64,000 bases of DNA. Origin: Candidatus Stammera capleta (GTDB lineage: Bacteria; Pseudomonadota; Gammaproteobacteria; Enterobacterales; Enterobacteriaceae). Positions 4,229-41,509 of the stretch are shown in pieces; within the stretch, counting starts at the first letter, position 1, and each line of letters begins with the position of its first letter. The notes under the pieces are model-generated. The model made no database searches, was not told the origin of the DNA, and was given only the letters and a program-made list of their open reading frames with translations. The stretch spans positions 40,900-104,899 of the forward strand of contig CP145599.1 in assembly GCA_036884335.1 (NCBI GenBank), written 5' to 3'. The position numbers and the translations under genes are program-made.

Positions 4229-4823
4229 ATTATTTGACACAAATGAGATTATATTATTATCAAATAATATATTTAATATTAATTTTAATAATTATTTAGT
4301 TCATGAAGTAGTTACTTGTTATAAAAATAATAAAAGGAAGGGTAATTCATGTCAAAAATCTAGATCTGATGTTTCAGGTTCAAATAAAAAACCATGAAGA
4401 CAAAAAGGTACTGGTAGAGCTAGATCAGGATCAACTAAAAGTCCTATATGAAGATCAGGTGGTGTTACTTTTGCTTCTAAACCTAAAAAATATTATTTTA
4501 AAGTTAATAAAAAGGTTTATAGATTAGTTTTAAAAATGATTTTATCTAAATTATTAATTAAAAATAATATATATATTTTTAAAAATATATATATTAATAA
4601 ACCAAAAACTAAATCTTTTTTAAAATATTTTAGTTTTGTAAATAATTTTAGATGTTTAATAATTTTAAATAAATTAGATGATAATATTATTTTATCTTCT
4701 AGAAATTTATATAAATTTAAAGTTTGTGATGTTTATCATATTAATGTTATAGATTTATTATCTTTTAGAAGTATTATATTTGATATTAATTCTATTAGAT
4801 ATATAGAAAATAAATTATTATAA
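4218..4823 (+). CDS. rplD: 50S ribosomal protein L4
   Basis: ATG at 4218 overlaps the rplC end by 11 nt. [26 protein letters not shown] is the classic L4 motif, with TGA at 4395..4397. Same frame as track ORF 4536..4823. Confidence 0.93.
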
Positions 4824-4824
4824 A

Positions 4825-5121
4825 ATGAATATTAATAATAGTATTTTAAAAAGTTTTTATTTAACTGAAAAATTTTTTTATCTTTCAAAAAAAAATAATG
4901 TAGTTATATTTAAGGTTGATAAATGTTATAATAAATTTCAAATATTAAATGTTTTTGTTAAATATTTTAATTTAAAAGTTCTTAAAATAAGAACTGTTTT
5001 AGTTAAAAAAAATATTTTAAATAAAAAAAAAAATAATTTTAGAATATCTAAATGAAAAAAAGCTTATATATTCTTAAAAAAAGGTGAGAATTTAAAAATA
5101 GATAATATTAAAAATAAATAA
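4825..5121 (+). CDS. rplW: 50S ribosomal protein L23
   Basis: ORF 4825..5055 continues through TGA 5053..5055 (..[18 protein letters not shown], matching the DWKKAYVTLKEGQ region of L23) to TAA 5119..5121. Confidence 0.9.
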
Positions 5122-7356: not shown

Positions 7357-7782
7357 ATGATTTTACAACCAAGAAGAACTAAATATAAAAAATTACATAA
7401 AGGTCGTAATAGAGGTTTCTCTAATGATAGTAAAGTAGTTTTTGGAGAGTTTGGTTTAAAAGCTATTACTAGAGGTAGTATAAGTTCAAGACAAATAGAA
7501 TCTGCTCGTAAAGTAATTACTAGATTTGTAAAAAATAATGGTAAAATGTGAATAAGAATATTTCCTGATAAACCTATTACTAGAAAACCTTTAGAGGTAA
7601 GAATGGGTAAGGGTAAAGGTAATGTTGAATATTGAGTTGCAGTTATAAAACCTGGTAAAATATTATATGAAGTTTCAGGATTAAATATAATTAAAGCTAA
7701 AAGAGTTTTTAAATTAGCCTCAGCTAAATTATCTGTAAAAACTATATTTGTAAGTAAGGAAGAATTTTTATGAAAATATTAG
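7357..7782 (+). CDS. rplP: 50S ribosomal protein L16
   Basis: Begins [20 protein letters not shown]; contains ..[19 protein letters not shown]. Under table 4 it reads through TGA 7771..7773 for three more codons to TAG 7780..7782. Confidence 0.93.
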
Positions 7783-7952
7783 AAATTTATAAATATAAAA
7801 ATTTAAAAGATTTAAAGGAAGAATTATTTAATTTATATAAAGAATTATTTATTTTAAAATCTAAATTATATTCTAATAAATTAAAACAAACACATTTAAT
7901 AAAATTATGTAAAAAAAAAATTTGTTGAATTAAAAAAGAGTTGTGTATATAA
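7770..7952 (+). CDS. rpmC: 50S ribosomal protein L29
   Basis: ATG at 7770 sits inside an ATGA overlap with rplP. 60 aa, beginning [30 protein letters not shown], like the L29 helical hairpin. Operon position between L16 and S17. Confidence 0.8.
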
Positions 7953-9459: not shown

Positions 9460-9765
9460 ATGGCTAAAAAATCTATTATAGTTCGTGAAAAAAAAAGAAA
9501 ATTATTAATTAATAAATTTTTTAATAAAAGAATTTATTTAAAAAAATTAATTTCTAATTCAAATACTTCTAGTTTAGATAGATGAAAAAATATTGTTAAA
9601 TTACAATCTTTACCTAGAGATTCAAGTTATATACGTAGTAGAAATAGATGTAATATAACTGGTAGATCTTATTCTTATATGAGAAAATTTGGTTTAAGTA
9701 GAATAAAATTTAGAGAATTTGCTAGTAAAGGATATATACCTGGTTTAAAAAAATCTAGTTGATAA
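9460..9765 (+). CDS. rpsN: 30S ribosomal protein S14
   Basis: Begins [16 protein letters not shown] and ends ..[11 protein letters not shown]. The last sense codon is TGA 9760..9762, at the conserved C-terminal Trp of S14, followed directly by TAA. Confidence 0.9.
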
Positions 9766-29392: not shown

Positions 29393-30616
29393 TTAATTTT
29401 TATATATAGGATATTTTTTACATATTTTATTTACTTTTTTTTTTATTTTATATATATATTTTTTTTTTTTTATATTATGTAATAATTTACATATTAATTT
29501 TGCTATATATGATGATGTTTTTTCTTTTATTCCTCTTTTAGTTATTGATGGTGTACCTATTCTTATTCCAGATGTTTTTAAAGAATTTTTTTTATCATCT
29601 GGAATATAATTTCTATTAACAATTATATTTGCTTTTTCTAGTATTTTTTCTGCAGTTTTTCCAGATATTTTAATATTATTTAAATTTACTACAAATAAAT
29701 GTGTTTGTGTGTTATTAGATATTATTTTAAATTTTCTTTTTTTAAATTCTTTAAACATATATTTTGTATTTTTTAATATTTGTTTTTGATATTTTTTAAA
29801 TTTTTTATTTAAAGCTTCTTTAAAACATATAGCTTTTGCAGATATTATATGCATTAATGGACCTCCTTGTGTTTGAGGAAAAACTGAATAATTTATTTTT
29901 TTATATATTGTTTTGTTATTAGATAAAATTATTCCTCCTCTTGGTCCACAAAGTGTTTTATGTGTGGTACTAGTTACTATATGTGCATATTTTATAGGAT
30001 TAGGATATAAATTAGATACTATTAATCCTGCTATATGTGATATATCAGCTAATAAGTAGCTTTTATTTAAATTAGCTATTTTTCTAAATTTTTTTCAATT
30101 ACATATTTTAGAAAATGAGGAAAATCCAGCTATTATTAATTTAGGTTTATATTTTATTGCTAATTTTTTTATATTTTTATAATCTATATTACCTTTTTTA
30201 TTTAAATAATAATATTTACATTTATATATTTTATTTGATATACTTGATTTTGATCCATGACTTATATGTCCTCCATGTGTTGTTTTCATTGATAATATTG
30301 TATCACCTATATTTAAAATTGAATTATAAGCAGCTAAATTTGCTTGAGTTCCTGAATGTGGTTGAACATTTACATATTTTGCTTTAAATAATTTTTTAGC
30401 TCTTTTAATTGCTATATATTCTATTTTATCTATATATTTGCATCCTCCATAATATCTTTTTTTATAATATCCTTCTGCATACTTATTTGTTAATATAGAT
30501 CCTTGTGCTTTTAATATATTTTTATTTACATAATTTTCTGATGCTATTAAGTTTAAAGTTTTTTGTTGTTTTTTTTTTTCTAATTTTATTATTTTAAATA
30601 TTGTATCTTTTTTCAT
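29393..30616 (-). CDS. glyA: serine hydroxymethyltransferase
   Basis: Pieces 29393..29854 and 30095..30616 share a frame. The bridge reads W-KKFRKIAN..TSTTHKTLCGPRGGII..QGGPLMH, the SHMT PLP-lysine region. TGA at 30095..30097. Confidence 0.95.
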
Positions 30617-37329: not shown

Positions 37330-39783
37330 TTATTTATTTTTTTTTGATATATTTTTTTTAAATAAAATTTTAATTATTTGTTTAATATTTTTTAAACTGT
37401 ATATTTTAATATTTTTTTTTATTTCTTTAGGTATTTTTTTTAAATCATTTTTATTATTTTTTGGTATTATAACTTTTTTTACTCCTCCCCTTAATGCAGC
37501 TAATAATTTTTCTTTTAATCCTCCAATAGAAATTATTTTTCCATTTAATGTTATTTCTCCTGTCATTGCTATATTAGGTTTTATAGTATTTTTAGTTAAT
37601 GTTGATATTATAGATGTACATATTGCTATTCCTGCGCTTGGACCATCTTTGGGAATTGATCCTTCAGGAATATGTACATGTATATCTTTTTTATAATAAA
37701 AATTTTTTTTTATTTTTAATTTTTTTGATAGAGATCTTACTACTGTAAGTGATATTTTTATAGATTCTTGCATTATTTTACCTAAAGATCCAGTATATAT
37801 TAATTTTCCAGAACCATGTATAGATTTTGATTCTATTGTAATTAAATCACCTCCTAATTCTGTTCATGCTAAACCTATTACTTCTCCAATTTTATTTTTT
37901 TTATTAATTTTACCATAATTGAATTTTTTATTACCTAAATATTTTTTTATATTTTTTTTATTTATATTTATTTTTTTATTTATTTTATTATTTAATAATA
38001 TTTTTTTAACAGATTTTCTACATATTTTAGATATTTCTTTATCTAATCCTCTTACACCGTATTCTTTAGTATAATATCTAATAATTTTTATTATGCATTT
38101 ACTATCTATAAATATTTCATTTTTTTTTAATGAATTATTTATTATTTGTTTAGGTATTAAATGTTTTTCACATATATATTTTTTTTCTTTTTCTGTATAT
38201 CCAGATATTTTTATAATTTCCATTCTATCTAGTAGTGTTATTGGTATATTATTAGTAGAATTTGCAGTTGATATAAACATTATATTTGATAAATCGTAAT
38301 CTATTTCTATGTAATGATCGTTAAATATATTATTTTGTTCTATATCTAATACTTCTAATAATGCAGAAGTGGGATCTCCTCTTGAGTCATATGATATTTT
38401 ATCTATTTCATCTAATAAAAATAATGGATTTTTAACTTTTGTTTTTATTATTTGTTGTATTATTTTACCTGGCATAGATCCTATATATGTTTTTCTATGT
38501 CCTCTTATTTCTGCTTCATCTTTTATACCTCCTAAAGATATTTTTATATATTTTCTACCTGTTGATTTTGCTATAGATTTACATAAAGTAGTTTTTCCTA
38601 CACCTGGTGGTCCTATTAAACATAGTATAGGTCCTTTTATTTTATTAGATCTGTTTTGTACTGCTAAATATTCTAATATTCTTTCTTTAACATTATTTAA
38701 ACCAAAATGATTTATGTCTAGTATTTCTTTAGCTTTATTTAAATCTTTTATTATTCTTGTTTTTTTGTATCAAGGTATTTGTAATATTCAATCTATATAT
38801 GTTCTTGATACTGTTGCTTCTGCGGACATAGGTTGCATCATTTTAAATTTTTGTAATTCTAATTCTATTTTTTTTTTTGCTTGTTTTGGTAATTTATATT
38901 TTATTATTTTTTTTTTAATTATTTCATATTCATTATTTATATTATCTATATTATTTAATTCTTTTTGTATTGCTTTCATTCTTTCATTTAAATAATATTC
39001 TCTTTGCCCTTTTTCCATTTGTTGTTTAATTCTTTCCCTAATTTTTTTTTCTATTTTTAAAATATTTATTTCAGATTCTATTATTATCATTATATATTCT
39101 AATCTTTTTTTAATATTTTTTATTTCTAATATTTTTTGTTTTTTAGTTAATTTTAATTGAATATTATATGCAATAGTATCTGATAATTTAGTTGGATTTT
39201 TAATATTTTTTAATGATATTAATATTTCTTGTGGTATTTTATTATTTAATTTTAAATAAGTTTCAAATTGATTTATTATACTTTTTATAAGTATTTTATT
39301 TTTTTTATTATTTTTATTTGTTTCTTTTATTTTTTTATATTTTGCTCATAGACATTTATTTTTTTCTTTTATTTTTTTTATTTTAATTCTTTTTAATCCT
39401 TCTATTAATATTTTTAATGTTCCATCTGGAAGTTTTAATATTTGTAAAATTAATGAGATAGTTCCTATATTAAATAAATCTTTTTTTTTTGGTTCATCTT
39501 GTTTAGGATTTTTTTGAGCTATTAATATTATTTTTTTATTTTTTTTTATTGATATTTCAAGGCATTTTATAGATTTTTTTCTTCCTATAAATAATGGTAC
39601 TATCATGTGTGGATATATTACTGTATCTCTTAAAGGTAAAATAGGTATAATATTATTTTTTTTTTTTTTTAAATTATTTTTATTTACATTATTTTTATTT
39701 ATATTTTTTTTATTTATATTGTTTTTATTTATATTTTTTTTATTTATATTATTTTTATTATTTTTTATTTTTTTAGGTTTCAT
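37330..39783 (-). CDS. lon: ATP-dependent Lon protease
   Basis: Four track pieces share one frame, joined by TGA (37864..37866, 38788..38790, 39346..39348). Contains IPILPLRDTVIYPHMIVPLFIGR, GPPGVGKTTLCKSIAKSTGRKY..IRGHRKTYIGSMPGKIIQ and KDGPSAGIA (catalytic Ser). 817 codons. Confidence 0.95.
39676..39750 (-). repeat. in-frame tandem repeat, 5 copies of a 15-nt unit (NINKK/NINKN) in the lon 5' region
   Basis: On the plus strand the units are ATTTTTATTTACATT, ATTTTTATTTATATT, TTTTTTATTTATATT, GTTTTTATTTATATT and TTTTTTATTTATATT. The 30-mers 39691..39720 and 39721..39750 differ at one base. Confidence 0.9.
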
Positions 39784-40920: not shown

Positions 40921-41509
40921 TTTTATGTTTTTTTTTTTTTTTTAATATTTTATCAATTATTCTATATTTTAATGCTTCTTTAGAATTAAAATATTTATCT
41001 TTTTCTATATCTTTTTTTATTATTTCTATAGGTTGTTTAGTTCTTTTATGAATTATATTTATTAATTTATTTTTTATTTTAATTATTTCATCAGTTTGTA
41101 TTTTTATATCTGTTGCTTTACCTTCTATTTTTCCTAGTGGTTGATGTATCATAATATTAGAATTAGATAAGCAAAATCTTTTTTTATTTTTTCCTGAAAT
41201 TAAAAGTATTGATGCCATAGAATATGCTTTTCCTATACATATTGTATTAATATCAGGTTTAATATAATTCATTGTGTCATATATAGACATACCTGAACTA
41301 ATTATTCCTCCTGGTGAATTTATATATATAAATATATCTTTTTTATTATTTAAATATTCTAAATATAATAATTGTGAAATTATATTATCAGACATATAAT
41401 CATCTATATATCCAGTTAAGAAAATTATTCTGTTTTTTAATAGTTTATTTAATATAATATTATTATTTTTATAATATTGGTTATAATAGCTATTTTTATT
41501 TAGTTTCAT
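40910..41509 (-). CDS. clpP: ATP-dependent Clp protease proteolytic subunit
   Basis: Intact 199-aa ORF containing ..[32 protein letters not shown] (Ser-His catalytic context). Confidence 0.95.

Follow-up and report, generated by a model that had tools for sequence, protein, structure and literature searches.

A TGA codon in the rplP/rpmC overlap of Candidatus Stammera capleta is probably a former stop codon that persisted through UGA reassignment

Candidatus Stammera capleta is an extracellular pectinolytic symbiont of tortoise beetles. In the 64,000-nucleotide stretch of its genome that we analyzed (hereafter, the window), the end of rplP, the gene for ribosomal protein L16, reads TTA TGA AAA TAT TAG AAA (7768..7785; frame 7357 + 3n), and the TGA overlaps the start codon of the downstream gene, rpmC, to form the tetranucleotide ATGA. 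This junction raises the question of whether the TGA is a former stop codon of rplP that became a tryptophan codon when the genetic code changed, or merely a by-product of the way rpmC begins. The initial annotation took the codon for a frozen record of the ancestral stop; its coordinates, the ATGA overlap, the W-K-Y reading, and the stop at TAG 7780..7782 all proved correct when the sequence was re-read and the ORF was translated (Table 1). In our assessment, TGA 7771..7773 is probably a former rplP stop that was made a Trp codon by UGA reassignment in the Stammera lineage.

Table 1. Features at and around the rplP/rpmC junction (positions in the window)
Feature	Position	Strand	Description
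rplP (uL16) CDS, code 4	7357..7782	+	141 codons, then TAG stop 7780..7782
Trp65 of L16, internal TGA	7549..7551	+	Conserved Trp column; TGG in code-11 relatives
Trp93 of L16, internal TGA	7633..7635	+	Conserved Trp column
AAGGAAG, Shine-Dalgarno-like, for rpmC	7756..7762	+	Within rplP codons K-E-E, 7 nt 5' of rpmC ATG
TTA, Leu138 of L16	7768..7770	+	Final base is the A of rpmC ATG
Probable relic TGA, rplP codon 139	7771..7773	+	ATGA overlap with rpmC ATG 7770..7772; sense (Trp) in this genome
rpmC (uL29) CDS	7770..7952	+	60 codons, then TAA; Pfam PF00831
AAA TAT (Lys-Tyr) and new rplP stop TAG	7774..7782	+	Predicted read-through tail

Under table 4, rplP contains in-frame TGA at codons 65, 93, and 139, and the table 11 reading is interrupted already at codon 65. 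The predicted product matches the L16 family over the entire length of the profile (PF00252, residues 5-132, profile positions 1-132 of 132, E = 7e-43, 146.2 bits, cut-off 27.9), and the tail past residue 132 lies outside this conserved domain. The rpmC product matches L29 (PF00831, residues 10-57, E = 6e-07, 29.7 bits, cut-off 24.5). Because the rpmC frame contains an upstream TAA at 7755..7757, the ATG at 7770 is the earliest possible start of this gene, with 13 nt at its 5' end that are dual-coded, that is, read in the rplP frame as well. The AAGGAAG motif is a putative Shine-Dalgarno sequence for rpmC, and the 3' end of the 16S rRNA, ...GGATCACCTCCTT, is canonical and retained in this genome.

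The genome (G000; 253 kb, 15% GC) carries TGA in 367 of the 400 Trp columns that are conserved with a code-11 relative (92%; the other 33 are TGG) and in 10 of the 12 conserved Trp columns of the S10/spc region. In-frame TGA codons are present in 145 of the 214 orthologous genes, and the TGA/TGG ratio corresponds to the equilibrium of the other NNA/NNG codon pairs, indicating that UGA is a full sense codon. We did not find prfB in G000, where the single release factor-family match (238.6 bits) is a prfA-like copy; prfB-bearing relatives yield a second match at 278-357 bits. The only tRNA-Trp gene has the anticodon CCA, and a tRNA-Trp with the cognate UCA anticodon is absent from the genome. 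A tRNA-Trp of this kind is a known condition in Stammera (PMC10540940, PMC13695967, PMC13092985) and, hence, is no argument against code 4 in G000. The use of UGA for Trp in Stammera agrees with Salem et al. 2017, as that work is cited in PMC10540940 and PMC13695967.

Conceivably, UGA 7771 could still terminate rplP translation or strongly pause it, via context-dependent or release factor-independent termination or via stalling and rescue, so that the W-K-Y tail would be rare and the coupling to rpmC would be kept. We consider this very unlikely, given that G000 lacks prfB, that RF1 does not recognize UGA, and that TGA occupies 92% of the conserved Trp columns, two of them within rplP itself. 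Some substance is lent to this possibility by the sole tRNA-Trp(CCA), which is near-cognate for UGA (PMC10540940, PMC13092985), by the strong context dependence of sense UGA in an early recoder, G018, and by the slight enrichment of the leftover TGG codons of G000 before T. However, the TGA/TGG ratio is at neutral equilibrium in G000, and the junction UGA precedes A, a next base that in E. coli favors read-through by tRNA-Trp more than any other (Engelberg-Kulka 1981 and Kopelowitz 1992, as cited in PMC10540940).

If the TGA is a former stop, the orthologous codon is expected to terminate rplP in relatives with the standard code, and we accordingly compared the junction over 45 Stammera species plus outgroups. 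Five of these species (G002, G003, G020, G057, and G060) use code 11; each has TGA in 0 of the 12 conserved Trp columns and an intact prfB without sense TGA, and five basal Stammera genomes with code 11 and prfB have been reported (PMC13695967). In G020, where 96% of the ORFs are full-length under table 11, rplP ends in ...GTT TTA TGA, overlapping the ATG AAA of rpmC, so that this code-11 species stops rplP exactly at the TGA within TTATGA. The codon orthologous to the TGA of G000 is, thus, a working stop in a standard-code relative. In G000, the geometry of an ATGA overlap is present, with three bases shared by TGA and ATG and the frames correct, but, without RF2 and with UGA read as Trp, the TGA, unlike that of G020, is not a working stop. 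The remaining code-11 species are diverse: G003 and G057 terminate rplP at a TAA two codons upstream and keep the in-frame TTA TGA behind it, whereas G002 and G060 have other rplP/rpmC overlaps that lack TGA. Of the five code-11 species, only G020 has this TGA as its rplP stop.

Outside Stammera, 72 of the 80 gammaproteobacterial loci read ...ATG TAA TGA AA.. in the rplP frame. At these loci, rplP stops at the TAA, which shares one nucleotide with the rpmC start (TAATG), and the TGA follows in frame because rpmC begins with ATG-A. By itself, then, the in-frame TGA proves nothing: in most Gammaproteobacteria, it is present without being a working stop. As claimed in the initial annotation, L16 of free-living relatives terminates in ...FVTKTVM, and the codon spacing is equal in FVSKEEF-TTA-TGA of G000 and FVTKTVM-TAA-TGA of E. 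coli. From this equal spacing and the identical frame relation, TTA 7768..7770 appears to be the positional counterpart of the Enterobacterales TAA stop. Compared with G000, the tail lacks one codon in G020 and G003, which implies that indels occurred, so we infer the homology of the TTA and the old TAA rather than observe it. A conserved Trp at the position of rplP codon 139 is found in none of the L16 orthologs outside the recoded clade, in line with the former-stop reading. A Buchnera and Dichelobacter each underwent, independently, the loss of the TAA with takeover by the TGA inside ATGA, which indicates that the switch from TAA to the tandem TGA is easy under code 11. Together, these comparisons support the view of the rplP TGA as a second-generation stop, the successor to a TAA.

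The same comparisons bear on the alternative that the TGA is a mere by-product of the rpmC ATG-A that never served as the rplP stop in the direct ancestors of G000, the TAA having decayed after recoding. An idle in-frame TGA behind a working TAA is, as shown above, the prevailing gammaproteobacterial state, the code-11 species G003 and G057 likewise stop at an upstream TAA with TTA TGA behind, and TAA to TTA is one A-to-T change that could recur at 15% GC. We nevertheless regard this course of events as unlikely. The TGA-stop state exists without recoding in G020; G003 and G057 have their upstream TAA at a position other than that of the enterobacterial TAA; and the TTA TGA in the rplP frame is common to G003, G057, G020, G018, and the crown clade of recoded species, that is, to all junction-keeping basal and crown lineages, so that a single early change is most parsimonious. 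By this parsimony argument, with the basal branching of the genus not settled by the trees, TGA would have been a working stop in the direct ancestor of G000.

The trees were built from 3,697 amino acid columns of the S10/spc region, with the columns of the junction itself removed. They contain a crown clade of 36 code-4 species (support 100), to which G018 is the sister group (SH-aLRT 94; site-heterogeneous model, PMSF tree), and TTATGA is reconstructed as ancestral for the crown clade together with G018. This comparison with recoded relatives and the one with table-11 relatives are the checks proposed in the initial annotation, whose interpretation they support. The ATGA rplP/rpmC junction is found in 24 of the 45 species, and the state of the junction changed at least eight times on the tree. 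ATGT was derived three times; in nine species, the TGA is replaced by TGT (Cys), and rplP must continue under any code. In G021, G046, and G059, a new TAA appeared five codons upstream in rplP, and in G052 and G058, TAA or TAG occupies the old TGA codon and the rpmC start is shifted downstream. The length of L16 in the genus ranges from 132 to 151 aa, which, together with the nine TGT species, indicates that a C-terminal tail is tolerated. The trees place the code-4 species G042, G012, and G017 with the code-11 species G020, G002, and G060 (support 83-85) and not with the crown clade, which, provided that the grouping is real, would mean more than one UGA reassignment in Stammera. Losses of prfB in the genus number at least five.

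The sequence TGA AAA TAT TA(A/G) is unchanged across a 10-species clade that includes G000. This sequence also encodes M-K-I-L of rpmC, so its conservation is not attributable to the L16 tail; we considered selection on the W-K-Y tail, but it is inseparable from selection on the rpmC N-terminus (M-K-I-L), every site being dual-coded. The TGA persists, apparently, because TAA or TAG in its place would destroy the rpmC ATG, and the tail owes its shortness to rpmC codons 2-5 (AAA ATA TTA A/G..), which happen to yield TAA or TAG in the rplP frame. The image of a frozen record, therefore, needs amendment: the record of an ancestral stop is backed by G020, which ends rplP at the same TGA, but it is held by the rpmC start and not passively frozen. 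The short added tail and the longer overlap noticed initially are both predicted by the reading frame, with the overlap with rpmC growing from 4 to 13 nt, and L16 of G000 most likely carries the three extra residues W-K-Y. An artifact of sequencing or assembly, or a chance occurrence devoid of history, is scarcely credible as the source of the junction: ATGA motifs are common in such an A+T-rich genome, and G000 has six junctions of this kind, but the 11-nt string TGAAAATATTA is identical across 10 separately assembled species, the ATGA junction recurs in 24 of the 45 species, and its codon is a stop in G020.

Genes ending in TGA amount to ~6% of the orthologous genes in code-11 Stammera (13/214 in G020 and 12/210 in G003). 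Among the ~24 TGA-ending genes of these two genomes, only rplP retains the orthologous TGA in G000, and the others now end in TAA; the rplP TGA is, therefore, the sole survivor among the ancestral TGA stops and not one of many. These low counts, together with the history of the other ATGA junctions given below, do not bear out the companion claim that overlapping TGA stops were in common use. A conserved, TGA-ending 69-codon 'ORF' (GRCVQGP...SRVADFNPN; G000 C1 ~29463, minus strand) is antisense within the 16S rRNA gene, a gene-calling artifact, and was left out of the TGA-stop counts.

The six junctions of G000 in which an upstream-frame TGA lies across a downstream ATG imply that the motif is not improbable by chance and that its significance rests on the comparison with relatives, which supports rplP/rpmC as a relic and none of the other five. 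In the code-11 orthologs of those five, a spacer separates the upstream gene, which stops at TAA, from the downstream one, or the two genes do not lie next to each other. Thus, at the tsaB/glyA junction (window 30589-30616, minus strand), tsaB ends in TAA in G020 and G003, and glyA is 1.4-4 kb away; at the nusB/clpP junction (window 41500-41509, minus strand), nusB of G003 ends in TAA 148 nt before clpP. Neither junction is a relic: both overlaps arose after recoding, via loss of the intervening DNA. Three junctions outside the window, namely, def/fmt (def at 39144-39584 of G000 C1) and those at G000 C1 13116-13841 and 111019-111735, were likewise rejected as relics, being secondary when compared with the code-11 genomes.

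A true second case of ATGA formerly existed at rplD/rplW. This junction has the ATGA form, with TGA as the working stop, in free-living Enterobacterales and the code-11 species G003 and G057, and the TGA is kept, with T as the next base, in G018. In every fully recoded species, the in-frame TGA has been lost there, through a TAATG junction, a shift of frame, or a TAA with a spacer, the latter being the state of G000 (window ~4821-4827).

The history of the rplP stop can be tentatively ordered as follows. In the enterobacterial ancestor, the gene would have read ...ATG TAA TGA AA.., with TAA ending rplP in a 1-nt TAATG overlap. In early Stammera, still on code 11, TAA would have changed to TTA (Leu), so that the tandem TGA became the stop and the overlap became the 4-nt ATGA; G020 would remain in this state (TTA TGA, code 11). 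Next, the tRNA-Trp(CCA), itself unaltered, would have begun to decode UGA, and prfB would have been lost. As a result, Trp would be incorporated at codon 139, followed by Lys-Tyr, and RF1 would terminate translation at UAG 7780..7782; rpmC might start independently or by reinitiation from the rplP stop located 9 nt downstream.

An intermediate stage of reassignment may be represented by G018, which has an intact prfB and TGA in 21% of the conserved Trp columns. The TGA share in this species depends on the next base: 38% before A, 15% before G, 9% before C, and 3% before T (p = 2e-14). A mutational neighbor effect was rejected as the source of this bias because no comparable effect was detected in the Lys, Glu, Gln, Leu, and Arg NNR codons, and we found no report of such next-base dependence of the TGG to TGA change in the literature searched. 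G018 looks like a stage of ambiguous decoding that is limited to leaky UGA-A contexts. The rplP TGA of G018 is followed by T and, accordingly, may still act as a stop in this species.

Among the fully recoded species, eight (G006, G011, G019, G024, G044, G047, G050, and G055) have an open prfB in which the conserved Trp codons are themselves TGA. The six prfB genes that were translated (G006, G011, G019, G044, G047, and G055) keep the GGQ motif of RF2, and most of them keep the SPF stop-recognition motif (NPH in G044); the SPF position reads NPF in the code-11 species G003 and G057. In prfB-bearing relatives with the rplP UGA in the UGA-U context (G018 and the group with a 14-residue tail), this UGA may terminate part-time. 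In a 13-species subclade, all eight prfB-bearing species keep the rplP TGA, and both lineages without prfB replaced it; at 4-5 independent contrasts (sign test p ~0.25), this pattern is suggestive of, but does not support, the proposition that the TGA was retained because prfB was, with RF2 still ending rplP translation in the group with the 14-residue tail. The prfB-bearing G006, with TGA in 92% of the conserved Trp columns, is recoded as fully as G000 and shows no avoidance of UGA-U. A broader scheme, which we advance with slightly less than even confidence, is that Stammera presents a stepwise series from stop to sense: UGA-A would have been tolerated first, in the presence of RF2, recoding would then have been completed, and prfB lost at least five times, with TGA stops purged unless locked by a start codon as in rplP/rpmC; the rplP UGA would have passed from stop through an ambiguous codon to sense.

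The change itself is small, three added L16 residues and a 13-nt dual-coded stretch, and the rplP relic is best viewed as an expected by-product, a well-documented example of what a known code change was predicted to bring about. Its value is that rplP offers a concrete, datable case of the fate of a UGA stop on reassignment, which in 2009 was only inferred for Hodgkinia, and that the code-11, early-recoding, and fully recoded species of Stammera make the states of one codon before, during, and after reassignment directly comparable. With respect to the survival of relic stops, an overlapping start codon appears to be protective, whereas the unprotected TGA stops have all been replaced. For annotation, the rplP end in these genomes is the position that corresponds to 7782, not 7773, and it should not be presumed that an ATGA junction in a code-4 genome is an ancestral overlap.

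A separate observation on gene ends in G000 concerns several of the form ...TGA TAA with a C-terminal Trp, which are mistakable for tandem stops. In rpsN (window 9760-9765), the TGA encodes the natural C-terminal Trp of S14 (...KKSSW), and in rpsG (G000 C1 ~40328 onward), that of S7 (...AFAHYRW); both codons are TGG in code-11 relatives.

One of the closest known systems is the rplP-rpmC segment of the S10 operon in E. coli and other Enterobacterales, which shares with G000 the gene order, the relative frames, and the position of the in-frame TGA. In Enterobacterales, however, a TAA stop precedes a TGA that is never reached, and the overlap is 1 nt, whereas G000 has TTA at this place, reads TGA as Trp, and has a 13-nt overlap. 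The 4-nt ATGA architecture is also that of coupling overlaps described elsewhere (Huber et al. 2019, PMC6728339; Carsonella, as discussed in PMC2704378), which link what becomes of a UGA stop to a start codon (McCutcheon et al., PMC2704378). In those coupling systems, TGA is a working stop recognized by RF2; in G000, RF2 is absent, TGA is sense, and only the architecture is left, while rplP now terminates 9 nt later, downstream of the rpmC start.

For Hodgkinia, C-terminal extension of UGA-ending genes following the loss of RF2 has been predicted (McCutcheon, McDonald and Moran 2009, PMC2704378), and rplP of G000, in which the frame now runs past the UGA to the first UAA or UAG thereafter, matches this prediction. 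Unlike the Hodgkinia extensions, which were inferred to have been trimmed later, Stammera retains the states that precede recoding (G020), accompany its early phase (G018), and follow it within one genus, so that the event is traceable at a named codon. Finally, 'Candidatus Providencia siddallii' PSAC is a gammaproteobacterial symbiont with a transitional code, and the study that describes it asks which genes retain UGA as their stop (Manzano-Marin et al. 2023, PMC10540940). Like G000, PSAC has tRNA-Trp(CCA) and uses UGA as Trp, but in PSAC prfB is present and some nine genes seemingly still need UGA for termination, whereas G000 has lost prfB, and only the rplP TGA persists, as a sense codon.
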